DNA from: Antechinus flavipes
Taxonomy: Eukaryota
DNA length: 64,000 nt
Assembly (NCBI RefSeq): GCF_016432865.1
Contig: NC_067403.1
Coordinates: 245,272,001-245,336,000 of the forward strand
Direction: 5' to 3'
This document shows, piece after piece, positions 9,426-54,467 of the stretch. Under the pieces are notes generated by a model. It saw nothing but the letters and a program-made list of their open reading frames with translations, did not search any database and was not told the DNA's origin. The number at the start of each line of letters is the position of its first letter. Positions within the stretch are counted from its first letter, which is position 1. The position numbers were made by a program, and so were the translations under genes.

Positions 9426-11638
9426 TAAAAGTTTCTATTGTTACCATAACATATGTAAACAACAAAGTTAAGTAACATACCCAAAGACACCTAGCTATTT
9501 AGTATCTGAGGCCCATTTGAACTCAAGCTTAAGTCTTAAGAACTTCAGATCCAAAACTCTTATCTATTGTACCACCTACCTGCTTCTGCTTCATTTTACT
9601 CAAATATAAAATGGAATGCCATTTGAAATGCTCTCATTCACTCTGAGATATATTTGTTGTGGAAGTCAGATTGTCAGGAGAAGAATATTACATTGAAACC
9701 TATTTGTAGCAGCCCTTTTTTGAATCACAATTTTGAACCAAAATTAAGCTCATTCATGAAAAAAAAATTTAAAAAATAGAAAAAAAAGAGAGAAGAGCTA
9801 CAAAGACAGAGAGAGAAAGGGGGGGAGGTTGTTACAGGATTGTTAAAAAATTAAAAGGATGAAGAATAAATTTAATATATATATAATGAATGTAAAATGA
9901 GTCAACTATGTGATTATACAGTATTTTATGGGTGTTAAATCACAATACGTAAATGTTAGTAACTATTACTAGTACTTGTACATTCTGATCAAAGTAAAGT
10001 AGCCAAAATTAGGTAAACAATAGGCAAAATAAATACAAACAACTTAAAAGTTAAAAACATTTTGCTAAAGGATGTTACTGAAATATTGTAGTATAAGGAA
10101 ATGTCAGTCTAAAGAGATTTGGGTTTTTAATCTTAATAGAAAATTGGGGAAGCTACTTAGTATAATGTATAAATTACTGGACCTGGAATGAGACTTATCT
10201 TTACAGAGTCCAAATCCATCCTCATGATTGACCATGGGCAATCATTTAACTCACTTTGCTTCAGTTTCTCATCTGTAAATGCAGTTGCAAAAAAGAAAAG
10301 ACAAAGGACTCTACTATCTCTGCAAGAAAGTCCAAAAGGAGAATTGAACATGAGTGAAAATAACTTTAACCACAACAAATGTGTTAAGATTAAATAAAGA
10401 AAAAATCCATTGTATTTATCAAAGTGTGATAAGCCATGACTTCAGTGGACTAATAATGAAGAATGTAACTCCTTCTTCTTTGAATACATTTGATATTTCA
10501 TAAGTGAAACATATATTAAATGCTTATGTGCATTCAGTTCAAAATCAATAACATTACAAAATGAATATTTATTAACTTTAAGGTGCTAAGAACTTAGTAC
10601 TAAGAGTGAGCAATGGTTATCACTAATAAATATCTTGAGGAAATTCAGAAGCTCTCTCTTCTCCTGAATTCCCCTTTTTAAAAAGATCATTTTTAAAAAA
10701 AAATTTCAAAAGGACATTATTGATAATTAGATTATGTTGACTCTAATTGATCTTGATCAGATCCTGCACAATTCTGCTAGGAATTTAATGTGAAGTAGGA
10801 AAACCTATTGTATTATACTCAAGTTTCATAGAGACATATCCTTTCATCTAAACAGTCCAAGATTGGGAATCATCTGCTATCTAGAAGTTTTCTGGATGCA
10901 GGTGTGACATTACTATGATGGGCCATCAGACTCTATTGCAATAGTCTTGTTGTCTTTGGTCTAAAAAAGCTGGGTAAATAAACACATTGTTTCATAATAG
11001 TCTGCTGGGCTTATTTTTAAAAATTATAAAATTACCTAGAAAGTAGATCTGTCATTTTTTGAAAACATTTCTCAACCATAAGGAATACACTTAGAATAGA
11101 TTAAGATTAAGTTGTAATCATTTGTTAATTAACAAACAACTGATATAAATGTTATGATAGAGTAATTCAAGAAATGGTAGAATTAATTTTTGCCTAATGA
11201 TTACTAGAGAAGACTACACAATGGAAGGTAAAGAACTAAGATAGACCTTAAAATAGGCAAATCACAAAACAGAAATGTTCAATATGTTGGAGAATTTTGT
11301 TCTTTCTTAAATGGATGATTTCAAGGATAATTTTATCTTAGCATGATTGACATATAACTGATTAGAGTCCTTGATGTAGGATAGAGGCTTAATCCATTCT
11401 TAGTAGATTTGGATTTTTTTTCCCAGTTATATAGAATATTAGAATTGAGATAGAAATTGAAGGAACATAACATTGGATGTTGGAGCTGGTGATGTAAACC
11501 TAAAATTAAAATTAGGAGAGAAATGGCAGATCCCCAAATCCAATTGTTCCTGTTTGGAGGAAGGAAACTGAGGATCAGAGAAGGAAAGTGATTGCATTAT
11601 TTTGAATTCATCGTTTTCACAGGCAGAAGAAAGACACA

Positions 11639-16567: not shown

Positions 16568-17106
16568 TGTTATGCCACAGTTTTCTTTAACTGTCTTGAC
16601 TCAGTTTCCCTGTCTCAGTTTCCTTAACTGTTCTATCTCTGACCCAGTAAAACTAAGGATTATTCGCTCTAGGGTTATGAATTAGCAAGATAAAAGAGTA
16701 GATCTCCTGACTCTTTTACGGATTTACAATATCCCTTAAAATATTCCAAGATAACCTACGATATCTTTACTTCTTTGTCTCTGGATATTTTAGAGTTTTA
16801 TGGCTTCCCCTCCCTGATAAAAACTTTCCCTCCCTTTCTCTTCTTTGTCTCCAAAAAAGTATTTAAGAAGTTGGGGTTCCTCCATTCATGGCTGGAGAAT
16901 GGCATCTGGCAGCTGGATGCTGGACGCTGGATTCTTTGGGTCCTCCAGCCCTGGGACCAATATGGATTCCTTGGTCCCAGTATACTTATCTCTGTCTGAC
17001 TGGATAATCTGAGACGAGAGTCCTGTCCAGTCAATCTTACTCTCCCATTAATAAAATATTAAAAACTCTCTAATCTCTCTCCTACCTCAGTTTCTCTGGC
17101 ATTACA
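16568..17106 (+). repeat. 5' LTR of the Gln-PBS ERV
   Basis: TGTTATGCC...GCATTACA; AATAAA near 17050; direct repeat of 21242-21776. Confidence 0.9.
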
Positions 17107-20100
17107 ATTTGGAGGTCCCACCGAGATAATAGAAACTGAGAACTGAATTAGAGATTAGAGACCTTTCTGTCTCCACCTAGGCCTGGGCTCAGGACCTGGG
17201 TCTGTTCCTTGGGAAAAGCGGTTCTTCAGCCTCAGTCGGGCCTACAGTGGACAATGAAATCAATTCGGCATTTAATTCAGCATTCAGAAGAGTAAGTCTG
17301 TCTGGGTACCTTTTGGGGTACCATCTGGTTCTGGTTCTGGTTCTGGTCTGTTCTGTTGCTAGCAACCTGTGGTCTCAGAATAAATACCGAGGGGTTTAAA
17401 AATTCTGAGACAGGTATTTTCTGGGACGCTGGAAAATATCCTCTGGGTATGTGTTATATGTTTGTTTAATGTTGTAACTGTGTAGTCTGTGTGATATATG
17501 TTCTATGTTCTGTGTGGTTTGTTTGTCTGTTATGTTGTTGGTTGGAAAATTTTTTTTAAGAACAACGTTGCAGCTGTGCTTAGTAAATTGGAGCTCCACG
17601 TGTGTCTCTGTGTGTCCGTGTTAAAATTTAGGAAGCTTGTAAGAGATACAAACCTCTTGTGTTGCAGGCTTAGAAAATATCAAGAAGTTTGAAAAATCTT
17701 TCTCTCTCTCTGTCTCTGGCTGACTGCAGCATCCTGTGAGAAAAAGGGAGAAAAGGGAGAGAAAGGAAGAAAAAAAAAGGAAAAGAAAAAAATCGATTGA
17801 AAGGGATTTGAAAGTTTGGAAAGTTAATATACAGCAGTATGCTAACATTTAAAGGAAAGAAGTTTGAATAGAATATCTAGGCATTCTCTGTGAAGGCAGA
17901 GAAAAGCACTAAATGGGCTTGGAAGTTCACAGAAGCCCCTTTGGATTCTGGAAGGGAAAAAGGGAAACAAAACTTCTCTCTGAGGGTGGGGAATCCTGGA
18001 AAAAGCCCCTAGTCTGTTTTTGCTGATTTAAAAGCTTTGTTAAGTTTTAAGAACAATGATTAAGAAATTTGGAAATTGGTTGTTTGAAAATTTGCTTGTG
18101 ATTTTAAAACTTTTAACCTGTTGTACTAATTTTGTAAGTACATGGAATTTAGCTATTTTAAACGGACAGAAAAGGTTTTTTTTTTCCCCTTGAAACAAAG
18201 CTTACTGGAGTAAAGAGCAATAAAATTCAAGCTTAGCCTGGCCTGGGCAATAAAAAGCTCTGGAGATAAGATGCTAATAGCTGTTAGAAGAAATGTGGTA
18301 GAAGAAAAACTTTTAAAAACAACTGTATTAGTTTGATTCAGTTTGTTACCTTCTGAAATATATTGAGTTATTTGTTAACATAAGTTATACTTTAAAACCA
18401 GCCCTGCTGGACATGTATGGGTTTTGTGGAGGTTTGGGTTATTCACTATAGTGTGAATCTTACAGGTTTTTGAAGGAAAAAGGAAAGAGGAATGCAGGTG
18501 ATTTAGGAAGGACTGATTTGTAGGGGAAATTAGAGGTTTGCATGGTTTTAGGAAGGTGAAAGACTTTTGGGAGTAGATGAAGAAGTGGGGGAGGGAGCCT
18601 CCCACCCCCACTGCCTTCTGCTACTTTACCAAAGGAGCATCTGGGAAGGAAAGTTCTTTAAGGAGATTGTTCAAGTATGTAATCAGGGAGAAAGAGAAAG
18701 TTGGAAATGGGTGGATTTGGGAAGAAACCTGATCTTGGGAAACTGATGGGCTAAATCTTGAAAAGGATCACCATGTAGGAAATTGAGTGGGGAACCTGAG
18801 GGAAGTTTTTTCTAGGGGGTCAGGAGTGGGGGAAAGATGGCCATATGGAATCCTCTCCTCCCCTCATCCCGCTGAGTACGTTCCTGCCGTTTTTTTTTTT
18901 TTCCTTAACTGATTACAGCCAGTGCAGCAAACTGTGATTTTTAAGGACATGCTTACTTTTAGGTTAATTGATTGAATATTTGTTTCTTCATAAAGGTTTT
19001 CTTGGTTAAGAGATATGGTCATAAATGTGATCCATACTTTGGTCTGAGTATTTCTAAAAGTTTAATTGCTATGTTAAAAAAACCTTCTTGAATTCTTTTA
19101 TGTGGAATTGGGTGTTTTGTATAAATTTAAATTGATTGTATTGGGTCATCCTGACGTTATTTAAAGGGCCTCTGAATATAATAGTTTTTTCTTTGTCCTT
19201 TTGAAAATGTTTTTGTTATGGACAATATGCAATTTGGGATATTTTTCTATGTATTGGGTATTTTAAAAGCAAAATAATTTGTATGTATAATGTTCACTCA
19301 TGTAACATCTACTTAGATATGATAATTGTTCTAAGTTGTGAACTTATTGAGACAAAATTTCTTTCTGTTATTACTATAAGGTTAGGGTAAATCTTTGTTT
19401 AGGAGTTATCAGAAATTTGATGAATCACATCTGTTATTGGAGGTAAAAGTTTTTGGGCTTAGAATTAATTAGTTAATGCTATTTGGGAGTTTTAAAGCTC
19501 CACCCTCTGACAGTTACTGGGACAATTGATTGATAAGCTGTTAAAACTCAACTGCTTATGTTATGTTATAGTTATGTTCTTGCATTTTTCCTTCTGTAAC
19601 TGATCTCTCTGATCAGAGCAATGGTCAATAGAACTGTTAATGCAATTCAATTATGTCAAGCCTTGCTATTTTCAGTCTGGCTATATGTAATCATTGTATC
19701 CTAAATGCTTGGGCAACTAAGTATTTCGCCTGGTTATCTGTCTGTTACTGGATATTTGTGTTTTGTTCCTTTAAGATTTCTACATGATAAATGGACAATT
19801 AACAGGGGTCTGTAAGACTGCAGCCGTTTGCTTGGCCTGTAAAGCAAACTCGTCTCGTCACATAGGAAACTGCAGACCAATTTATTTTGGCCTCCTCGTA
19901 TTTTGCAACAGTCTGGTGAACTGAGTCTATCTGAGACTGATCTAATCTTTATGTGTTAGATTTGTGTTTTTGTTCTAGATTTTGGTCCAATTACAGATAT
20001 TGACTTGCTTCTGGAACCTGGATCAGCTTTGATCAGCTTTGATCAGCTTTGATTGTCACTACGGCACACACCCACTCTGCAAGGAATGAGAGCCTCCTAT

Positions 20101-21241
20101 CACTTCATAGCCTGAAGCAGCAGTTTTAAAAATGAGACCATGGACTGGACCCTGCATGGAGTGTACTTTGGACTGATATGAGGGACTTTGGGAATGGTTG
20201 ATGACTCACTGTTAAACCTTACCTGGATCATCTATTACTGTGTGTTTTAAGATTTGGGATGAGATTTGTTAAAACTGTGTAATTATTATGTTTGAGGGCT
20301 TTTAAGGAAATGCTACTGTATTAGTCTGTTATGTATAGGGATTTTGATTTGCTCTTGGAATTTATATGGGGAATGGTCATTTGATAATTCCTTTCCGTGA
20401 GAAAAAAAAGGGGGAGGTAGAGATAGAACATAGGGGAAACTGGTATATTTTTTTTCAAAATACCTGAAAGAATGGGAACCCCTAGCTCCTATTCACTTTG
20501 CCTTAAGCACTTTTGCCCCACCCCCATCTCACTAGTTCAGATTGAATTTGGATGTTTTAGCTTTGGAATCCCTTATTTTGTTAAAATTTCCCTGGCAGAC
20601 TCAGTTTTGGGGATTATTTTTTAGAAAAGTTTTAGAAATCAGACACCTGTCCTGACACTGGCAGTCTCTCTGATCTGTTTTTCCAGTCCTGTAACCCCAG
20701 TTCATTAAGTATTTCAGCATTTCAAAGGACCTTGAAGTTTGGCATGAAGCACCTAAAAAGTTTGGAGTTTGCCTGCCTTGATGGTCTAACTGTGCATAAT
20801 CTGCTCGGGAATCTGTATTCTAATAGCAGCCCTGTTTCTCTGGGTGGGGACGGGTGGAGCTACTACAAGCCTCATCCTTACCCCATGGAGAGGGCTGCCT
20901 CTCTGAATGGGCCTTGGACCCTGCTGCTTTGTAAGCAGAGACTGAGTTAAGTGCACAAATGACCACAGACCTAACTGTCCATCTCAAATTGGATTCTCTG
21001 GCTGAAGTGGTGCTCCAGAACTATAGAGGACCTGACATGCTTGCAACAAGGGAGCCTTTGTACAGCTGTTAACTCTGGGGTTATCAGGGAGAGACTTGCT
21101 CTTGCCATACGAGTCCTTACATTTTTCTAATTTTATTTTTGGCTCATTTGCTTTACATAAGGTGGGTCAAAGACCTCCTGGGTATCTAGAGGAAGGTGCT
21201 AAGATTCAAAGGTTTGAATATTTAGGAGAAAGAGTGTGGAA

Positions 21242-21776
21242 TGTTATGCCACAGTTTTCTTTAACTGTCCTGACTCAGTTTCCCTGTCTCAGTTTCCTTA
21301 ACTGTTCTATCTCTGACCCAGTAAAACTAAGGATTATTCGCTCTAGGGTTATGAATTAGCAAGATAAAAGAGTAGATCTCCTGACTCTTTTACGGATTTA
21401 CAATATCCCTTAAAATATTCCAAGATAACCCACGATATCTTTACTTCTTTGTCTCTGGATTTTTTAGAGTTTTATGGCTTCCCCTCCCTGATAAAAACTT
21501 TCCCTCCCTTTCTCTTCTTTGTCTCCAAAAAGGTATTTAAGAAGTTGGGGTTCCTCCATTCATGGCTGGAGAATGGCATCTGGCAGCTGGATGCTGGACG
21601 CTGGATTCTTGGGTCCTCCAGCCCTGGGACCAATATGGATTCCTTGGTCCCAGTATACTTATCTCTGTCTGACTGGATAATCTGAGACGAGAGTCCTGTC
21701 CAGTCAATCTTACTCTCCCATTAATAAAATATTAAAACTCTAATCTCTCTCCTGCCTCAGTTTCTCCGGCATTACA
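21242..21776 (+). repeat. 3' LTR of the Gln-PBS ERV
   Basis: Direct repeat of 16568-17106. Confidence 0.9.
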
Positions 21777-22785
21777 CCTATGCTCCCTCCAGGGAAAAAC
21801 TCTCGTGATTTAAGATTTAATGCTTTATGGCAAATGGACATCACCTATGTTAAGAGGCATAGCATCTATGTGACTATGGATATACATTCTCAATTCCTCA
21901 TGGCTTCAGTCCAATCTCAAGAAGCATTTAGGCATGTGATCAGTCATCTCTGTCATTATTTTTCCATTGTAGCGTCCCACATGCACTTAAGAGAGGTAAT
22001 GGACCAGCTTACACATCTGCTTTTAGGTCCTTTTGCTTTGAATTTGGCATTGCCCATTCCACCAGCATCCCATATAAACTTACTGGTCAAGCCATTATTG
22101 GACAGACTATTTGTACCCTCAAGATGCTCCTGTCTAAACAAGAAAAGGGTATGTTAGGATTTGCACAACTCTTTACAGGACTCAAGCAGGCTTACTTAGA
22201 TGCAGCAATGTGTACATACAATTGCCTGCAATTTTCATATTCTGTGGATCTTACCTCAGCAATGCACTTCTGGCACACGCAGAGAGCATGGCTAACTAAC
22301 AGTATGGCCAACAAGGACAAGAAACCTCTTTCGACAGTGATGTGGAAGGGCTTAGATGGCATCTGGAAGGGCCCAGGTTGAGTCAAGGTTTGGGGGCCCA
22401 AGTATGCTCTTGTCCCAGAAGCAGAGGAGTGGATCCCAACAAGAAACCTCTATGACCTGGGAAAACAAGAAGGACTAGATGATGAATGCATTGCTGACAA
22501 CAATGCCCCGCAAAATCAGCCAGATGTCAACAGCCCTTCAGATGCTAATGGCAACCATGTCCCTCCTGACTGTGATACCAGAGACAGCAGATGCAGCACC
22601 AGTGTAGCAGCTGAATTGGACTGTCCTGGGTGATGTGCAACACCTGGAGACTGACAGAACTGGACAATGGGCTTGTGTGCTTCTCCCATGACTACCTGTT
22701 ATTCATATGGTAGTCTGATAGGCTTTGCCCTGTTTTCCAATTATTGACAATGCCTCTAAATTAGTGGGTGAAAAATCAACACGCC

Positions 22786-23286
22786 TGTAATTGGCTGAGG
22801 CTTGAGTTGATGCACTGAAGTCCCAAGCATGTGAGGCTAAATAGTAATTGGACCATACTCTATTAATATATAAGCTTGGAGAAAGAATAGCCCCTGCCCA
22901 CTCTTTGTGCAAGTCCTGATGTGTTGTATAGGAAATGACATTTTTGGTGGGTGGAGGCAGGGGAGTGGAAAGGGAAGCAGAAGGAGACTGCTGGCTGGTA
23001 TCTTGTCACAGCTGCTCGCTTTGCTATTGTGACTACCCTTGACCTCCAATCCCCCTCTGTTAGCTGACTTCCTGTCTGCCCATATTGCTATTGCAATCCT
23101 TCTTCACTTCTACTGAGAATAAAGATTGAAGAATTTCCCCTTAACCTGAATTCCTGACTCTGGCTGATTTTAAATACACGGTTATCACATCTCCAAGCAT
23201 ATATATTAATAGAGTATGGTCCAATTACTATTTAGCCTCACATGCTTGGAACCTCAGTGCATCAACTCAAGCCTCAGCCCATTACA
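22786..23286 (+). mobile_element. Solo LTR (22786-23189) fused to an inverted copy of its first 97 bp (23190-23286), flanked by TSD CACGCC
   Basis: TGTAA...TATCACA with AATAAA at 23118-23123; arms 22786-22882 and 23190-23286 are inverted with 4 mismatches in 97 bp; CACGCC at 22780-22785 and 23287-23292. Confidence 0.88.
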
Positions 23287-23383
23287 CACGCCCACATGCC
23301 AAAGTTAGTGAGGCAGTGCTACAGGACATGACTTTTCTTGTATACACCTTCCTCTGTACCTTTCTTTACCAAAAGGTGTATAC

Positions 23384-23575
23384 CAGGGGTCTTCAAACTA
23401 CGGCCCGCAGGCTAGATACAGCAGCTGAGGATGTTTATCCCCCTCACCCAGGGCTATGAAATTTCTTTATTTAAAGGCCCACAAAACAAAGTTTTTGTTT
23501 TTACTATAGTCCGGCCCTCCAACAGTCTGAGGGACAGTGAACTGGCCCCCTATTTAAAAAGTTTGAGGACCCCTG
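23384..23575. mobile_element. Non-autonomous hAT DNA transposon, OposCharlie1/OC1-like MITE, 192 bp
   Basis: 16-bp TIRs CAGGGGTC(T/C)TCAAACT at both ends followed by ACGGCCCGC; the 8-bp TSD is only partly preserved (GTGTATAC / GATCATAT). Confidence 0.85.
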
Positions 23576-24419
23576 GATCATATAATTGAAACCATAGGCT
23601 TATGACATGCTACCTCCTTGAACATGATTTTCTCGAGTGGGTTGAACATGTTATTCTTGCTTGGTTTTGGCACCTGTTGGGCCTAGTTCTTACTGTTTTA
23701 CTTTTGTTTGCCTTTGTTCTGTTATAAAACTTCTGTAATCTCATTGATCAAGCTAGACATAGTTGATGCTAAAGTTAGCTTGATGTGATGAGCAGTCCCT
23801 GTTTTACAAAAGAAGGGAATTGGGTCAAGGGAGGAGCCACCCAAGGCACAAATAGGAAGTACAAAGGCTTTGAAGCCTGAGATTCCTGGATATGGTCACT
23901 GTGAACAGTGCAGACTGACTCGTGGGCAGGAGCCCACGAAAAAGGGAAGAATAAGAATTGCTATGATTCACTCCCTTGTTATCTGCTTAGAGTATTACTA
24001 ACACTGCTCTGCTATCTCAATGTACCCAGGAAGAATTAGTATATCTTCCTTAGATTTGGGTGCATTTTTTATGGTGGGGTGAACATAGCTAATACTACAT
24101 TTTGCAGTAAGATGATATAGAGAAGGAAATTTGCTTTGAAATGACAAGGGTACTTTCATTTTTGTTAGTAGATTGAAGAATTGGGTAATGATTTTTTTTA
24201 GGATAATAATTACTGTGGCTGAAATATTCAATTCTTACTAATTGCAATTCTCACAAAATGTACGTCTAAAAGCAAGGCAAAACACCACTTTACAGAAAGA
24301 ATAATTCCTTTTGAGAGATGAATAGAGATTATGTAATAATTAAGTAAATTAAAAGTACTGAAGGAATGATGAAATATGGCTTTATGGCTTAAAAACCCAG
24401 ATTTTTCTCTGATGCAATT

Positions 24420-24525
24420 CTCTCTCACTAAGAGGTGCTCAATTTACTGGACTTTGAGCCAGTATATCTTCCATCTCATTAAAAGGTGATAAGTAGCATG
24501 GGAGAGATGGTGTCCCCACAGGGCT
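24420..24525 (+). promoter_or_regulatory. Putative OR promoter block for gene A'
   Basis: CTCATTAAAA 24475-24484; GTCCCCACAGGG near 24512; donor GTAAGT at 24946. Confidence 0.55.
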
Positions 24526-27059
24526 AAGAAAAGCAAGAACCATTTCTATTTATTAAGGTCAACGTGACTTTCATGAAAGGGTCGTTTTAAGTCGAGGAGT
24601 TGATTATTTTTGCAGGTATGGCTTTAGTTTGTGTCATATTGTAATTCTTGTGTGAGAAATAGCATAGGAAATTATTGAACCAGCAGTAATAAGGTCACTG
24701 GATTCAAATCCTCATTTTGAAAATCATTGTGAATTTTAAGCAAGTCATTCAGATTGTCTGAATTTCAGTCTTCTAATCTGAAGTCCTGTCATTGAGTTCT
24801 AATGTGAGGGTTAGATAAAAAGACATTTGTTAATATCTTTGTAAGCATTAAAGAAATCAATGGATTCCACTTATATGATAATAATATTTTATTATATTCT
24901 TCAGAGAAATAAGCAGCTGGATGTGATTAATTTCATCTGAGAATGGTAAGTGTAGGCTTTTTTGCTATCAATCCTGGAGTTTCTCTTATGTGAACGAAAT
25001 TGATGGTTTGAACTCTCAGTGATCCATCTGGCAGGTCTGAATTTTATGATCCCACTCAAGGATAGAGATTAAGGAAACAGGATGTCTAAGGAATGAAAAG
25101 TACTTTATATAGAATATCATCTCCCAACTTGCCATCCAAGGTATGGGAACGTAACCCTTCATCAATAGATTCAAAAAATAGCCCATTAAATACATTTATG
25201 TTGTTTATTTATAATCCATTTTATATTTTCAGGGACAATTTATTTTTAAGCACAGCTATCTCCCCAAATACCCCAACCTCTTAATTTCTTTTGTAAAAAA
25301 GAATTTTTAAATTTTCCAACAAACCTTACACTAGAACAACAATACTGGAGCAATGATACAATATTCCAGAACAATATAACCTCCAACTTTCATTTTTAAA
25401 GCAGGAAAGCAGGCTTTGTCATCTATTCTTCAAGATCAAATTTTGTTCATGTTGTTAATCTAACCAGAGTTTCCTATTACTGTTTTGTCAATTTGCATTA
25501 TTATTAAATAGAATTGATTCTCTTTTCTTCTCAGTTCATTACAAAGGCTTCTCAAATATCTTTTATTTATGATAATATCATTTTTCTTAATATAATATTT
25601 AATTAAAATCACATATCAATATATGTTTAATTATTCACTGATATTTATCAGTTTCCCATTCCAGGTTTTAAATATTAGTTTTCTTTCCACAAACAGTACT
25701 ATAAAATTTTGGTATCTATAGGATCTTTCTGTTTGCCACTGATATCCTTCCAGGATGTTACAGTAACCAACCTGCTGATCCACAGAGAAAGAATAGGTTA
25801 GTGTCTTTTTTGAATAATTTCAAATTTTTTTTTTTTTTTTTTTTAATCTTGGCTCAATTATTTCTATTAGCTCTATCAAATCAACTCTACAAAAACAGTA
25901 TCTTTGTTATTGCCTTTTTGATAGAACACCAAAATTGACAAATTTTGAGGCAATTTTTGCTTGTTTAAAAAAATAAACTATTTTACTAAGTATGATGTCA
26001 AAAAAGAGAATTGCATTAATTTTTATTTTCTGTCAGATAAATAATATTTATGAAAACTTTTGATATTATTTGGTCCATTAGACTTATGCCCTAATGGTTA
26101 GGGGCCATTAGGTGGCATAATAGTTGATATTGGGCCTGTAGTTGGAAAGGTCCAACTTCAAATATGTCCTCAAAAAAGACTCTCTGTGGGACTCCGAGTA
26201 CAACAGAGAATGTCTGTTTCCTTCTGTTTCTTCATCTAGAAAATGGGCAAAGCAATAGCACCTATATTTCAGACTTCTTTTGAGGTACAAGTGAATGATA
26301 TCAGTAAATGACTTAGCAATGGGCCTGGCAAGAAGTAGATGCTGTAAAATACAAGAAGCTGTTATAATTATTACTGCTATTTCTGACAACATTCTCTTTT
26401 TACCATGATACATATAAACAACAAAGGTAAGTGACATGCCCAAAGACATAGTGCTATTTAGTATCTGTGGCCAAATTTGAACTCAAGACTATGTCTTAAG
26501 AATTTCAGGCCCAAAACTCTATACACTGTACCACCTACCTGTCCCCGCTTCATTTTGCTCAAATATAAAATGGCACACCATTTGAAATGTCCTCATTTAC
26601 ATTGAGATATATTTGCTGTGAAAGTCAGATAGGGGAAAGAAGAGTATTTTCAAAATAGTCCCCTTTATTGAAAAACAAAGTACTTGAACCAAAATTGGAC
26701 TCATTCATTGAAAAAAAATATTGAGAGAGATAGAGAGACAGACAGACAGATAGATAGAAAGAGATTTGTTAAAGGATTGTGACAAAACTGATATTATATA
26801 GAGTAAATTTCAAATATGCATATTATGAAAGTAAAATGAGTCAACCATGTGATTATACATTATTTTATGGGTATTAAAGCACAGTATGTAAAAGCTTGTT
26901 AACTATCACTAGTACTTGCACATTCTGATTAAAAGCAAAGTAACCAGAATTAGAAAAATGATTGACAAAATGGAAAAAAAATTACAAATTAGAAACATTT
27001 TGCTAAAGGATTTTACTTAAATGTTTTAGTATAAAGAAATGGGAATCTAAAGAGCTTTG

Positions 27060-48739: not shown

Positions 48740-49338
48740 TGTTAGAGTTCAAATGTTGGAGTTTGTTCTTCTCAGGGCACAGCCGGTTTAGAGGCTTAGA
48801 GCCCTTCGGATGTCTCCAAATCCAAAGGTTCTGTCCTTCAGCCTCTGCCTCTGCCTTCTTCTGCCTCCAACAGAGATGGAAGATCTCTCTTATCTCCTTC
48901 TGGGGGGCCCAGGCACCAATTTGCCGCGGAGAGAGGGCTTCTGGCGTAGCTCCACTGAAGTCTGTCAAAAGTGTTCTCTGCAGCAGAGTCGTTTCTCTCG
49001 AGTCTAGCGCGATCAGCCAGCCAAGAGGAAAAAATGTATTCTGCCATAGATCCTTCATCGCTGGCTTTTTATCTGCCTCTTCTGAGAGAATGGGATTATG
49101 GGTTTTCTCCCATAGTGCTCTCTGGCCCAATGACTTTAAGGGAGGTGTGAACTCTCTTGAAGTTAGAAAGTGTACTTTGTGAAGCTAGCATACTTGTGGA
49201 GTCCAATGAGTAAAGGTGGGAACACAAGCCTTGTCTTGATTAGTTCTACTTAGTACCTTGTTTCAGGTTCTGGCCAAAACAACTTCTTGTAAGATTAGAT
49301 CAACTCTAATTACTTAGCAGTTAGTAAGGATTCCAACA
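48740..49338 (-). repeat. 3' LTR of the young provirus
   Basis: TG...CA; preceded on the sense strand by PPT AAAAGAAAGGGGGAGA (49354-49339). Confidence 0.97.
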
Positions 49339-49617
49339 TCTCCCCCTTTCTTTTGTTTTAAAACATAGGGGGTTTCTGAGGGGGTACACATAAATCCATC
49401 AATATGGGCCAGAACTTTGTAACAGATATACATGGTATACATAAATCCATCAATATGGGAGGCATTATACATAATTTACATGAGCACATAGCAATATAAC
49501 ACAGGCTAGTAGTAATGTAACAAATAACAAGAATCAATCTGAAAATTTACACATGTCCATAAGTCCTAGAAACAGTCCAATAGGATTCCATTGTCCATTA
49601 GTTCATGTGCCAGGAAT

Positions 49618-52281
49618 CTAATAATTCTTATGAGCACAATCAGCAACAGAACCACCCGATATTTCTTGGGTCTTCTCCTTTGTTTCAAGGGTCTGCTCCA
49701 TCTTTCTGCGATGGACAAGGCGAATGCGGCTCGTAGGCACCCATCTGATTCCTTCTCCACCTGTAGAGATGCAAGCAAATCCTCTCCCCCAAGCAGTTAG
49801 TCTATCTGGTCCCTTCCATTCACCACTTTCTGGGTCTCTCCACATCACCTGGCGATTATCTAAAGATAGTGGAGCTGCTCGCACTGGACACTGCTCTTCT
49901 GGTGGGTTATAAAACCTGTCTGCTGGAGCCAGTGCATCTTTATCAAAGATTAAAAAATTAATGGTATAGAGAACTAAATTTAGAAGTTCTCTAGGGTTAC
50001 CCGTGGCTCCTCCTTTCTTTTGTTTTTGGAGGAGTGTCTTAATGTCTCTGTTTCTTCTTTCTACTATTGCTTGACCTTGAGGATTGAAGGGTATGCCAGT
50101 AGTGTGTAGAATCTTATATTGTGCACAAAAGTGTTCAAAATGTTTGGAGGTATATGCCGGTCCATTATCTGTTTTTATTTCTTGTGGCACACCCATAATG
50201 GCGAATGCTTGAATGAGGAATTCAGTGACCACTCGGGCTGTCTCTTTTGCTGCTGGTATGGCAAAAGTGAATCCTGAAAAGGTGTCTACCACAACGTGGA
50301 TAAAAGACAGACGACCAAAAGATTTATAATGAGTCACATCCATTTGCCAGATTTCATTGGGTTTCAAACCACGAGGGTTCTTCCCTGGAGGCAGTGTAGG
50401 AGCATGGAAGGGAAGGCAAGCTGTACAGCTTTTCACTATGCTCCTAGCTTCTTCTTTTGTAATCCCAAACTGTAAACGCAAAGCTCGAGCAGCCTGATGG
50501 TATTTAGAATGGGATTCCTGAGCCTCCTGAAATAAAGGCGTACTGGCCAACATAGTTAAAAGGCTATCTGCCTTTGAATTTCCATCAAAAATAGGACCTG
50601 GAAGTCCACTATGTGAATGGACATGCAGGATATAAATCTTTCCTGGATGCTTTCTCACTTGCTCTTGAAGTTCCTTAAAGAGCTGATATATATTAGAAGC
50701 TGCAAATTTTATTTGGGCTGTGGCAATTCTTTGTACCACACCTACTGAATAGGCTGAATCAGATATTATATTTATGTCGCCTGGGTAATAAGTGAGAGCT
50801 AGCATGATCGCATATAATTCGTTCTGCTGAGTGGACTGAAAAGGAGTTCTGACTACTCTTTTTACGGTTAGATCATGAGAGTATACAGCACAAATATTTT
50901 GTTTGGCTGCGTCTGTAAAGATGGTTGGTCCTTCAAGAGGAACCTTAGAAACCTTCTCCTCAAAAATCCATTGCCAATTATGCAGTAGTCTGGTTATCTT
51001 TAATGGAGATCCATGTGCAAAATTTGGAGCCATGGCCAATAAAATCTGCCACTCTGGGATGGTTTCACAGCATACATTAATTTGTGCATTTGTATAGAAG
51101 GTATATATCTTGTCAGGTCTTGTCCCAGATAATTGTACTGCTCGCTTAATGGCCTTTAATAGAATTCTAGCCACAAGCACTGGGTAAGGCGTAAGGCTTT
51201 GTTCTGGTTGTGCTGGGAGGTTCACCCACTCTATCACACTGTCTCCTTGATGAAGGACTGCTGTGGGTGCTTCTTTTGTAGCAAAAACTGATATTTCCAA
51301 GGGTTTTTGAGTTACTCTCTCAACTACATTGGATAAAGCCAGTTCAACTTCTCTCAAGGTCTCTTGAGCTTCTTTTGTAAGCCGGCGTGGTGAATTTAAA
51401 GCAGTGTCTCCCCTTAAAATGTCATATAGGGGTTGCAATTGATTGGTAGTTAAACCTAATACTGGACGCATCCATTGGATATCTCCTATTAATTTTTGGA
51501 AATCATTTAAGGTGTTCAACCTCTCTGTTCTTAAAGACAGTTTTTGTAGTGTAAGTGCCTTAGGATATATTTCATATCCTAAATATTGAAAAGGAGCATG
51601 TCTTTGAATTTTTTCTGTAGCGATATGAAGTTTGTAGTATCTTAGTGTTTCTATGGTTTTTTGTAGACATGCTTCTAGAATTTGTTCCTCCGGTGCACAT
51701 CCCAAAATATCATCCATATAATGTAATAGCATAACTTTTGGAAATGCTTTTCTTATTGGAGCAAGAGCAGCAGCAACATACATTTGACACATAGTGGGGC
51801 TGTTCTTCATACCCTGTGGCAAAACCGTCCATTCATATCTTTTATAAGGCTCAGCTAAATTGACACTGGGCACCGAAAAGGCAAATCTCTTCATATCCTC
51901 CTTATCCAGAGGAATGGAATAGAAACAATCCTTGATGTCTATAACCCAAAGAGGCCATTCTCTAGGAAGCTGAGTAGGAGATGGAAGTCCAGGCTGAAGA
52001 GTTCCCATAGTTTCCATCTGTTCGTTCACTTTTCTTAAATCAGTGAGCATCCTCCATTTTCCCGATTTCTTTTTTACAACGAACACTGGGGAATTCCAAG
52101 GACTTAGAGAAGGTTGTAAATGCCCTTGTTCAAGCTGCTCCTGTATTATATCTAATAAGGCCTGAATTTTATCGCTACTTAAGGGCCACTGTTCTATCCA
52201 CACTGGTGTATCAGTTTTCCATTGGATAGGAATAGGTGAAAGTGTTGGCAGGCCTTCAACAGCAGCCCTGCTTAAAAAACC
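49618..52281 (-). CDS. pol: Pol (reverse transcriptase, RNase H, integrase), about 887 aa from the predicted frameshift, open
   Basis: LPQGMKNSPT and YMDD; RNase H IFTDA / NELYA / SDSAY; integrase HHCC zinc finger and D-D-E (WQMDVTH, KTDNGPAY, VERRN). Confidence 0.97.
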   Translation of the reverse strand, partial: GFLSRAAVEGLPTLSPIPIQWKTDTPVWIEQWPLSSDKIQALLDIIQEQLEQGHLQPSLSPWNSPVFVVKKKSGKWRMLTDLRKVNEQMETMGTLQPGLPSPTQLPREWPLWVIDIKDCFYSIPLDKEDMKRFAFSVPSVNLAEPYKRYEWTVLPQGMKNSPTMCQMYVAAALAPIRKAFPKVMLLHYMDDILGCAPEEQILEACLQKTIETLRYYKLHIATEKIQRHAPFQYLGYEIYPKALTLQKLSLRTERLNTLNDFQKLIGDIQWMRPVLGLTTNQLQPLYDILRGDTALNSPRRLTKEAQETLREVELALSNVVERVTQKPLEISVFATKEAPTAVLHQGDSVIEWVNLPAQPEQSLTPYPVLVARILLKAIKRAVQLSGTRPDKIYTFYTNAQINVCCETIPEWQILLAMAPNFAHGSPLKITRLLHNWQWIFEEKVSKVPLEGPTIFTDAAKQNICAVYSHDLTVKRVVRTPFQSTQQNELYAIMLALTYYPGDINIISDSAYSVGVVQRIATAQIKFAASNIYQLFKELQEQVRKHPGKIYILHVHSHSGLPGPIFDGNSKADSLLTMLASTPLFQEAQESHSKYHQAARALRLQFGITKEEARSIVKSCTACLPFHAPTLPPGKNPRGLKPNEIWQMDVTHYKSFGRLSFIHVVVDTFSGFTFAIPAAKETARVVTEFLIQAFAIMGVPQEIKTDNGPAYTSKHFEHFCAQYKILHTTGIPFNPQGQAIVERRNRDIKTLLQKQKKGGATGNPRELLNLVLYTINFLIFDKDALAPADRFYNPPEEQCPVRAAPLSLDNRQVMWRDPESGEWKGPDRLTAWGRGFACISTGGEGIRWVPTSRIRLVHRRKMEQTLETKEKTQEISGGSVADCAHKNY

Positions 52282-53137
52282 GAAGTACTCATTTTTAACC
52301 CCAATTGTTGTAAAACGTCTCTTCCCACAGATTGATGGGGATTTTTTCAACTATAAAAGGAGTAAAAACTCCTGTTTTGCCTTCAAAAGTCCATCTCATA
52401 GGGGCAGCACTAACTTCAGCTGCTATTGATCCTCCTACTCCAGACATATAGGTATCTGCTTTAATCTTTGGCCAGTGACTGGGCCAACTGGCACCTCTAA
52501 TAACTGTACGATCCGCACCTGTGTCTACCAATCCTTCCAATGGTAGGCCATTTATATAGATAGTGAGCATAGGTCGGTCAGCCGTTACTGCTGCTGTCCA
52601 GTATATTTCTGGTTTTTGTGGTCTGGAGTCAGAACCTGGGTGACTATCACGAGGCTGCTTATTAGGATTCTGTATGAGTAACCCTGATGCTACTACGTCT
52701 CCTGGGTGATAAGTCACACATTGACTACCTGTATTAGTGACTGGGATATTATCTACACATTCCCCAGTTTCCCACATCAGTGTGTGGATGGACACTGTTT
52801 TGTACATACAAGAAGGTGAAATGGTCAAGCCTACTGTGCCTGGAGGTAAGGGATCCATAGGCTGGAGAGGAACAGATTTCACCTCTCCAGGGGGTATCTC
52901 AGTTGTCCCAGCTGCATATAGCTCTATTCTCCCCAATTGTAATTCCCTTCTGCCATCAGGTTGCTTCCTGGCTGGTTGACTGTGTAATCCCCTTCTCCCA
53001 TCGTATGGCTTTCTGGCTGATTGGTCATGTCTGGGTACTGGACTTCTAGGCACTCTCTGGGTGCACCATTGGCTGCCATCATGCCCCAAGTATTTTTTGC
53101 CTTGGGCCCTGGGGCTGGGCCCCTCATCCCGTTTCCC
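52272..53137 (-). pseudogene. pro: Pro (degenerate dUTPase-like domain plus aspartic protease) with a 1-bp deletion near the C-terminus
   Basis: LVDTGAD active site. Restoring one G at 52324-52326 gives INLWGRDVLQQLGLKMSTSVF*; as assembled it stops at 52295. Confidence 0.9.
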
Positions 53138-53784
53138 TGAATCTGTCTGCATTCTGAGGCCCAATGGAAGCCTCTGTTGCATTTTGGACATGGGGTTTGG
53201 GGTCTTGTTCTCCCACCTTGTCTTCCCATTCTATCTCTATACCAACATTGAGCTTTCAGATGTCCTACTTTTCCACACTGAAAGCATCTACGAGTCTCTC
53301 TGGAAGTCCCTTGCCAAGAGGGATTCTGTCTTCTCATGTTTGGATTTTGGGAAGTCTGCATCATAGCCTGGCTATAAAAGGCACCTGTGTCCACTGTGGC
53401 ACAGCGTCTTATGAGTTCCTCTAAAGGAGCATCCTTGCGCAGTCCTAGTATAATTCTTCTGCAAACCTCATTAGCATTTTCCTTAGCAAGTTGCCTTATC
53501 AAGATGTCTGTTATTGCATTTTCTCCATTTGTTCTTATGATAGCTGTCTGCAAGCGTCCCACAAAGTCAGCGAAGGGTTCATTTGGCCCTTGTGTTATTT
53601 TTGTGAAGGCCCCCCCTTTGTCGTCTTTATTGTGAAGAGAAGCCCACGCTTTGATACAAGTTACAAGTAGCCCTTGATCTTCTATCAGCTTAAGCAGGCT
53701 TTCTATAGCACCACTCCTGGGTGGGTCTGGGGTTGGGGGGGTTGGGGTGGGGGATGGAGAATCTTTACCTAGGATCTGTCCCAT
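52924..53784 (-). CDS. gag: Internally deleted Gag, 286 aa (MA N-terminus fused to CA C-terminal domain, NC)
   Basis: MGQ myristoylation-type start; MHR ITQGPNEPFADFVGRL; two CX2CX4HX4C knuckles (CFQCGKVGHLKAQC, CPKCNRGFHWASEC). Confidence 0.93.
   Translation of the reverse strand: MGQILGKDSPSPTPTPPTPDPPRSGAIESLLKLIEDQGLLVTCIKAWASLHNKDDKGGAFTKITQGPNEPFADFVGRLQTAIIRTNGENAITDILIRQLAKENANEVCRRIILGLRKDAPLEELIRRCATVDTGAFYSQAMMQTSQNPNMRRQNPSWQGTSRETRRCFQCGKVGHLKAQCWYRDRMGRQGGRTRPQTPCPKCNRGFHWASECRQIQGNGMRGPAPGPKAKNTWGMMAANGAPRECLEVQYPDMTNQPESHTMGEGDYTVNQPGSNLMAEGNYNWGE
53083..53137 (-). promoter_or_regulatory. gag-pro -1 ribosomal frameshift signal (G GGA AAC plus H-type pseudoknot)
   Basis: GGGAAAC, spacer, then GGGCCC-A-GCCCCA-GGGCCC...UGGGGC, the same layout as the SRV-1/MPMV gag-pro signal; the -1 frame is the pro ORF. 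Confidence 0.88.
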
Positions 53785-53847
53785 TTTAGCCAAAAAAGGT
53801 TGTACTCACTCAGTTCCTGGTCACTGGAGACTTCTTGTGAAAGTAGG

Positions 53848-53865
53848 GTCCCTGTTCGGGCGCCA
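53848..53865 (-). promoter_or_regulatory. Primer-binding site, tRNA-Lys3(UUU)
   Basis: TGGCGCCCGAACAGGGAC, an exact 18-mer located 3 nt inside the 5' LTR boundary. Confidence 0.95.
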
Positions 53866-53868
53866 AAA

Positions 53869-54467
53869 TGTTAGAGTTCAAATGTTGGAGTTTGTTCTTC
53901 TCAGGGCACAGCCGGTTTAGAGGCTTAGAGCCCTTCGGATGTCTCCAAATCCAAAGGTTCTGTCCTTCAGCCTCTGCCTCTGCCTTCTTCTGCCTCCAAC
54001 AGAGATGGAAGATCTCTCTTATCTCCTTCTGGGGGGCCCAGGCACCAATTTGCCGCGGAGAGAGGGCTTCTGGCGTAGCTCCACTGAAGTCTGTCAAAAG
54101 TGTTCTCTGCAGCAGAGTCGTTTCTCTCGAGTCTAGCGCGATCAGCCAGCCAAGAGGAAAAAATGTATTCTGCCATAGATCCTTCATCGCTGGCTTTTTA
54201 TCTGCCTCTTCTGAGAGAATGGGATTATGGGTTTTCTCCCATAGTGCTCTCTGGCCCAATGACTTTAAGGGAGGTGTGAACTCTCTTGAAGTTAGAAAGT
54301 GTACTTTGTGAAGCTAGCATACTTGTGGAGTCCAATGAGTAAAGGTGGGAACACAAGCCTTGTCTTGATTAGTTCTACTTAGTACCTTGTTTCAGGTTCT
54401 GGCCAAAACAACTTCTTGTAAGATTAGATCAACTCTAATTACTTAGCAGTTAGTAAGGATTCCAACA
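53869..54467 (-). repeat. 5' LTR of the young provirus
   Basis: Identical by eye to 48740-49338; GATAAAAAG TATA-like element. Confidence 0.97.

Follow-up and report, generated by a model that had tools for sequence, protein, structure and literature searches.

How can a single retroviral insertion come to end in U3 on both sides? The question is raised by a 501-bp unit in the window, by which we mean the whole 64,000-nucleotide stretch of Antechinus flavipes DNA that was analysed. The window (1-64000) is a tandem olfactory-receptor cluster, with five open frames of about 320 aa at 11606, 28878, 35323, 43785, and 62731. Here we describe the unit and its insertion, the LTR family to which it belongs, the recurrence of the same arrangement elsewhere, the likely origin of its junction, and a younger subclass that carries a SINE.

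Structure and insertion of the window unit

Within the olfactory-receptor cluster, the unit sits in an older degenerate endogenous retrovirus (ERV), its insertion target, the left part of which extends from an integrase remnant onward (21777..22785, +), whereas the right part (23287..23933, +) is broken at 23383-23576 by a short element with 17-bp terminal inverted repeats, present in very many copies in the four sequencing runs covered, which we take to be akin to marsupial hAT/OposCharlie MITEs. A left target site duplication (TSD) copy, CACGCC (22780..22785), is followed by a complete 404-bp solo LTR (22786..23189, +; U3-R-U5, TG...CA, with AATAAA at 23118), which is assigned by eye to an older subfamily of the MEBrv3 family. 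The first 97 nt of this LTR (22786..22882, +; U3 positions 1-97) constitute the left arm and the left integrase attachment end. The LTR terminates at 23189 in ...TATCACA, directly adjoined by an inverted copy of U3 from position 97 to 1 (23190..23286, -), which provides a second U3 attachment end and borders the right TSD copy, CACGCC (23287..23292). At the aberrant junction itself (23189..23190), the U5-terminal CA precedes a T that could belong either to the unprocessed TT or to the inverted arm.

The first-pass annotation had described a 404-bp LTR joined after its terminal CA to its own inverted first 97 nt with four mismatches, and these coordinates were re-derived exactly. The mismatches lie at arm positions 7, 34, 37, and 88; three of these sites are rare, and the fourth is polymorphic (with 15 T and 10 A in 25 close copies). 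The four differences between the window arms, against a median of five between random copies, fit a one-template as well as a two-template origin. The arms form the sole long inverted repeat in 21000-25000, where the runner-up measures 23 nt.

Paralogues of the host ERV bear directly on the insertion. The target hexamer is single and insert-free in all 11 of them, the left flank continues into right-flank sequence in 10, and the exact CACGCC is present in two. The hexamer is therefore a true duplication and the whole unit a single insertion, in agreement with the earlier description of one 6-bp CACGCC around a 501-bp unit. An ordinary solo LTR has one U3 and one U5 end, whereas both outer ends of this unit are U3, so that the proposed final insertion by two U3 ends with one 6-bp TSD is likewise upheld. 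In its TG...CA ends, its 6-bp TSD, and its single-copy target, the unit displays the features of integrase-mediated insertion of a class II ERV.

The LTR family and its proviruses

Relatives of the window LTR number in the thousands (5,418 first-look candidates; 2,323 with both terminal motifs exact), and normal family copies have TG...CA ends, 6-bp TSDs, and a primer binding site (PBS) as well as a polypurine tract (PPT). An inverted arm was found in none of the 29 other best copies of the family, and the family thus lacks the terminal inverted repeats that the first-pass annotation had named as a refutation. On these 29 copies, and on arm lengths that vary from 70 to 148 nt in the SINE-less copies described below, family-wide terminal inverted repeats or a MITE were rejected as the source of the arrangement.

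One provirus of the family (L069) has a 6,108-bp internal part in which gag, pro, and pol were recognized by tblastn; its 958-bp tail, with a longest stop-free run of 83 aa, contains no frame of env size. By eye, the U3 start, R/U5, imperfect PBS, and pol of the window LTR and L069 agree with those published for marsupial endogenous betaretrovirus 3 (MEBrv3), which is described as an env-less IAP-like beta-ERV dominating dasyurid genomes (PMC11334065). The gag-pro-pol organization, the length of about 7 kb, and the lack of env are common to L069 and that description, and the present family shares its 6-bp TSD. The words "inverted" and "tRNA" have zero occurrences in the main text of the same paper, and the MEBrv3 description, as far as this main text goes, includes neither two-U3 units nor a SINE chimera (PMC11334065).

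The imperfect PBS, which departs from tRNA-type sequence after about 10 nt, follows all 12 normally joined 5′ LTRs, and among the LTRs seen, the tRNA-type 18 nt occur only at aberrant joins. Two further 5′ LTRs (L024 and L156) have a tRNA-type 18-nt PBS that is not followed by the normal leader, and L156 is joined to antisense pol; we read these as failed second transfers onto internal templates.

Two other LTR-bearing elements in the window may be mentioned. A young provirus at 48740-54467 (-) has MEBrv3-type internal sequence (86-93% to L069, with gag deletions) between identical 599-bp LTRs of a different type, with a different PBS and the TSD GTTATT; the MEBrv3-type internal region thus travels with two unrelated LTRs. 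At 16568-21776, an LTR pair of another family (539 bp, 98%), also with a different PBS, ends inside the integrase remnant of the host ERV, and its TSD is not evident.

Recurrence of the LTR plus inverted U3

A junction-spanning query identified four further copies among 40 scored. A pattern search for U5 ends that abut an inverted U3 start returned 21 matches, including 14 true cases of LTR plus inverted U3; one of the others proved to be two independent insertions (L043) and six were chance motif matches (L047, L049, L054, L056, L059, and L061), all of which were dropped. Further LTRs with an abutting inverted U3, which the first-pass annotation proposed to look for, therefore exist, mostly with an outer TSD, and the unit, in that annotation a possible fossil of aberrant two-donor integration, belongs to a recurrent class with at least 14 further LTRs instead of standing alone. 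Set against 2,323 normal LTRs that share these 24 nt, the arrangement has a frequency of about 0.6%; as exact motifs and short arms were required, this is a minimum.

In this SINE-less class, every copy has its own breakpoint within the range of arm lengths given above. Among the 13 SINE-less copies with two free ends, the TSD is perfect in eight, has one mismatch in one and two mismatches in three, and is offset in the remaining one. The two arms of a copy differ at 96/1601 positions (6.0%), much as the LTRs of one provirus pair do (23/405, 5.7%), suggesting that the arms were probably identical at insertion.

A broader search for inverted pairs of an inner-U3 motif, 300-460 bp apart, yielded 161 loci, and the mirror pattern of inverted U5 pairs yielded none, even though the U3 and U5 search motifs are equally conserved (49 and 51 exact matches among 53 normal LTRs). 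Detailed analysis covered 46 loci, drawn from the first 50 entries in the list of 161. Two free U3 ends were found at 34 of the 46, with a TSD that is perfect in 28 of these 34 and within one mismatch in 31, against a shuffled-control mean of 0.24. Nine of the 46 loci run into the PPT and internal sequence on one side, and in three an end was not found; after extension, four of the nine longer units have U3 on both sides together with an outer TSD. In two units with one U3 end, L062 (87-1616, -) and L064 (133-736), the inverted part continues through the PPT to a non-LTR end in internal sequence, again with a 6-bp TSD; the internal end of L064 is a U5-like cryptic CA site, and that of L062 is without CA. 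The short units may have been inserted as such or may have been cut down from longer ones by recombination.

Origin of the junction

Before joining, integrase 3′ processing removes the two letters that follow CA. The state of these letters was compared at 16 simple junctions, with the complex junctions L045, L050, L051, and L088 kept apart. The unprocessed TT or a primer copy, 2-41 nt in length, is retained behind CA in 12 of the 16, one or two other letters follow CA in three, and only the window copy has a single ambiguous T. As integrase would remove such letters, their retention indicates that the junctions were most likely made by reverse transcriptase (RT) rather than by integrase. Copies of the primer may also extend well beyond the PBS. 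The L041 junction passes the 18-nt PBS into further tRNA-like sequence, presumably of the Lys type, and the L045 junction contains a whole tRNA copy (RF00005 1-71, E 3e-4, with 27.6 bits slightly short of the gathering score, 29); ARAGORN reported no tRNA in L041, L045, or L050. Between the whole-tRNA copy and the inverted U3 of L045 lie about 45 further nt (1580-1627).

Microhomology at the 16 simple SINE-less junctions averages 0.44 nt, compared with 0.33 nt by chance (P 0.29), and was accordingly rejected as a driver of these junctions; the absence of an excess implies that the strand jump was near-blunt. Moreover, only plus strands start at U3, which accounts for the 161 U3 pairs and the lack of U5 pairs. 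A strong-stop switch is recognized by a junction at U5, the TT, or the primer copy and by a U3-only polarity, and the class exhibits both.

We consider it very probable that the window unit is an abortive RT product of the env-less MEBrv3, inserted by the viral integrase, and we infer that it represents the SINE-less, tRNA-primed form of a plus-strand switch. Plus-strand strong-stop DNA would fail in the second strand transfer, a failure that may be helped by the departure of the PBS from tRNA-type sequence after about 10 nt. The 3′ end of the strong-stop strand would instead be placed, with little or no homology, on a plus-sense U3, either on its own strand by snap-back or on a second PPT-primed plus strand. 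RT would then extend it back to the U3 start at the PPT boundary, generating a linear duplex with two U3 ends that the viral integrase could insert.

Cellular inserts associated with LTRs have been known since older work on avian retroviruses. Retroviral RTs are reported to join strands in vitro via two paired 3′ bases, including non-templated ones (PMC3035444), and strong-stop template switches have been proposed for asymmetric HIV LTRs (PMC9278108). The likeness to RT clamping and template jumping, as these sources describe it, lies in the transfer of a completed strand's 3′ end to another template, where 0-2 nt are paired (PMC3035444, PMC9278108), and strong-stop DNA template switching is common to the HIV products and the present class (PMC9278108). 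In contrast, the products described there arose in vitro or are somatic HIV products, whereas those considered here end in U3 on both sides, recur, and have become fixed germline insertions flanked by TSDs (PMC3035444, PMC9278108). Taken alone, the window copy represents a variant form of the aberrant reverse transcription already known.

The first-pass annotation had instead ascribed the junction to integrase, which would have transferred a processed U5 end to a different LTR before integration by two U3 ends. Autointegration is an established process, the window junction lies directly after CA with only an ambiguous T and is itself also compatible with a clean CA join, and L044 could be a direct join with a later change; nevertheless, the reading is very unlikely, because most of the simple junctions keep the TT or primer copy that 3′ processing removes. 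The whole tRNA in L045 also argues against an integrase-made join, and attack of a U3 end on U5 would be expected to produce units with two U5 ends, of which none was found. For the class as a whole, the integrase-junction model is refuted, and the window copy too is probably not an autointegrant. Host end-joining of an unprocessed U5 viral DNA end to a broken U3 fragment before integration is highly improbable as well: the near-blunt junctions, the one or two filler letters, and the lack of excess microhomology are in keeping with it, and tRNA remnants are known at LTR circle junctions, but such joining should be symmetric, in conflict with 161 U3/U3 and zero U5/U5 pairs, and the multi-switch junctions L051, L050, and L045 resemble serial RT jumps. 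Finally, a post-integration host rearrangement (fold-back repair or inverted duplication) or a fold-back assembly error is scarcely credible, and misassembly of the window unit is unlikely, since although palindromes are unstable and hard to assemble and no piece spanning 23189/23190 was among those listed from 4 of 24 runs (repeat-swamped contig sets, in which joints lacking the unit may stem from paralogues of the host ERV), the direct TSD adjoins both U3 starts, the arms differ at four sites, primer copies cannot derive from a solo LTR, and dozens of loci have distinct TSDs and junctions.

A SINE-bearing subclass

Among the 46 loci, the majority come from younger LTR subfamilies and contain a non-viral cassette of fixed polarity, which consists of a SINE head, an A-rich linker, and antisense U3 from about 225-270 to 1, and usually lies between two U3 ends. 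The SINE head variant is absent from the window, and the window copy is older and without a cassette. Exact matches of the head variant number 463; among the first 30, 29 adjoin LTR or internal sequence of MEBrv3 without a break, and the remaining one is a fragment that follows a PPT-like tract. The linker/U3 junction is identical at 116 places. When 20 of these places on three other chromosomes were taken as an out-of-sample set, the cassette is present in all 20, U3 is found at both ends in 11, and the TSDs are perfect and distinct in nine of the 11. Two units (L167 and L179) have the head behind a PPT-like tract resembling that of the other-LTR provirus in the window, and the SINE RNA may enter particles of that variant as well.

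The SINE heads are young: 74 of 561 pairs are identical, with a mean of 2.6 differences per 73 nt, compared with 11-17 per 73 nt between ordinary SINE copies, and the head differs from three ordinary copies nearby at 8-10 positions per 73 nt. The arms of the subclass are 1.05% apart (52/4940), and rare variants are found in both arms in nine cases and on one arm only in 41.

The boundary between the SINE and U3 is well defined. The first 13 nt of the head equal U3 189-201, and U3 1 to about 190 of the SINE units matches the opposite arm; the break falls exactly at U3 189, the first G of the head, in 7 of 30 copies (the modal value), with unrelated sequence beyond. In L147, U3 1-188 is the same in the full helper LTR and in the linker-side arm, and the two differ beyond about 200. 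U5 and the PBS are mostly absent, with R/U5 in only 5 of 28 head-selected units.

Downstream of the head start, a candidate A box at +14, a candidate B box at +57, and a first T4 at +212 to +216 within antisense U3 can be recognized. A T4-T5 run is present in 24 of the 31 units where the stretch was located (it was not located in 25 of 56) and is absent from the youngest U3 haplotype. In this haplotype (L138, L150-151, L155-157, L162-165, L083, L087, and L097), an A-to-G change near U3 position 186 removes the antisense T4; it could be an escape of the helper from the terminator of the SINE RNA, or neutral. Rfam gave no match on the SINE unit L174. The predicted SINE RNA has a 13-bp panhandle (z -5.4), which follows from the palindromic origin and hence is not independent evidence.

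It is probable that the subclass is a SINE that propagates itself through the RT and integrase of the ERV. More tentatively, on top of such self-propagation, a predicted SINE RNA of about 215 nt may prime RT in U3 in place of the tRNA. This putative Pol III RNA would pair by its 3′ part with the U3 of a helper RNA, and a PPT-primed plus strand would copy the helper U3 and then the SINE RNA to its 5′ end, which would replace R-U5-tRNA. The resulting strand end, complementary to U3 189-201, would jump onto a plus-sense U3 and be extended to the U3 start. With two U3 ends and an intact promoter in the product, the RNA could be made again. The Pol III transcript, its ends, and its primer role are predictions. 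In the tRNA-first units L147/L174 and L188, a tRNA-primed strong stop continues into the SINE cassette, which establishes a template role for the SINE RNA without extending to a primer role; the latter is suggested by the scarcity of R/U5 and the PBS and by the copy number.

Conceivably, though by no means assuredly, a SINE that had lost its LINE partner took up a second life as an ERV parasite, each round of which would produce a duplex lacking PBS and U5 but equipped with two fresh U3 ends. The window element would then record the type of tRNA-primed accident that could give rise to a SINE chimera. The chimera would take the same plus-strand route far more often than the SINE-less form does.

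An alternative for the subclass is an LTR subfamily with a SINE in U3, moved within ordinary Pol II genomes, in which fold-back occurs at the internal inverted repeat. Three of the 28 head-selected units (L168, L175, and L192) have the cassette enclosed by LTR pieces whose outer ends are U3 on one side and U5 on the other, as this alternative would have it; however, they differ from one another in build and orientation, and we regard them as products in which synthesis returned to the normal template. Crude regex haplotyping showed a partial linkage, in place of free assortment, between SINE lineage and U3 haplotype, which also favors such a subfamily. On the other hand, the normal young LTRs and proviruses listed among 30 loci are without the SINE insert, the sharp 5′ end of the head is joined to unrelated sequence, and the helper LTR of L147 is unlike the linker-side U3 beyond about 200. 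A SINE-containing LTR subfamily is thus unlikely, and self-propagation of the SINE through the ERV machinery is preferred.

Comparison with known elements

The class shares long terminal inverted repeats and a short TSD with MITEs and other TIR transposons, but its ends are retroviral TG...CA U3 termini, the arm lengths and centers vary by copy, and the primer copies reveal an RNA step. The window copy is a MEBrv3 LTR and neither an ordinary solo LTR nor a MITE.

The SINE head resembles WSINE1, a marsupial CORE-SINE, with which the subclass has tRNA-type A and B boxes and an A-rich tail in common. Ordinary SINEs move by target-primed reverse transcription, whereas the subclass is young, has a U3-derived 5′ end, and lies between integrase ends; the poly(A) end, the variable-length TSD, and the lack of integrase ends that mark a LINE-mobilized SINE are not its features. 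Ordinary WSINE1-type SINEs are reported to have been inactive in dasyurids for about 30 My (PMC4408412).

TRIMp3 elements (Cassandra, Helenus, and Ajax) are short and non-autonomous, with a Pol III promoter derived from a small RNA and dependence on the RT and integrase of LTR elements (PMC10886601), and the subclass, with its putative Pol III promoter, would resemble them in this. As described there, however, they have two direct LTRs, a PBS, a PPT, and a tRNA primer, and their tRNA-like part does not prime (PMC10886601), while in the SINE subclass the U3 ends are inverted and U5, PBS, and PPT are mostly missing; two direct LTRs enclosing both PBS and PPT are thus not the build of the subclass. 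No description of two-U3 insertions or of a SINE-U3 chimera was found in the open literature, and subscription papers or repeat libraries may hold one.

Implications

The class indicates that abortive plus-strand products of a germline ERV can be integrated through two U3 ends, from which it follows that some annotated "solo LTRs" need not be scars of provirus recombination, and the junctions preserve, as a natural archive, the points at which second-strand transfer breaks down. A new kind of mobile element is probably represented by the SINE subclass. If it works as proposed, it would be neither a LINE-driven SINE, a TRIM, nor a MITE, but a SINE moved by retroviral RT and integrase, and the report that dasyurid SINE activity ended about 30 My ago would need revising. 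It would also provide a mammalian case of a defective-interfering small RNA acting against an active ERV, together with hundreds of young palindromic inserts that are likely polymorphic markers, and the primer link between a SINE and a retrovirus would become directly testable.
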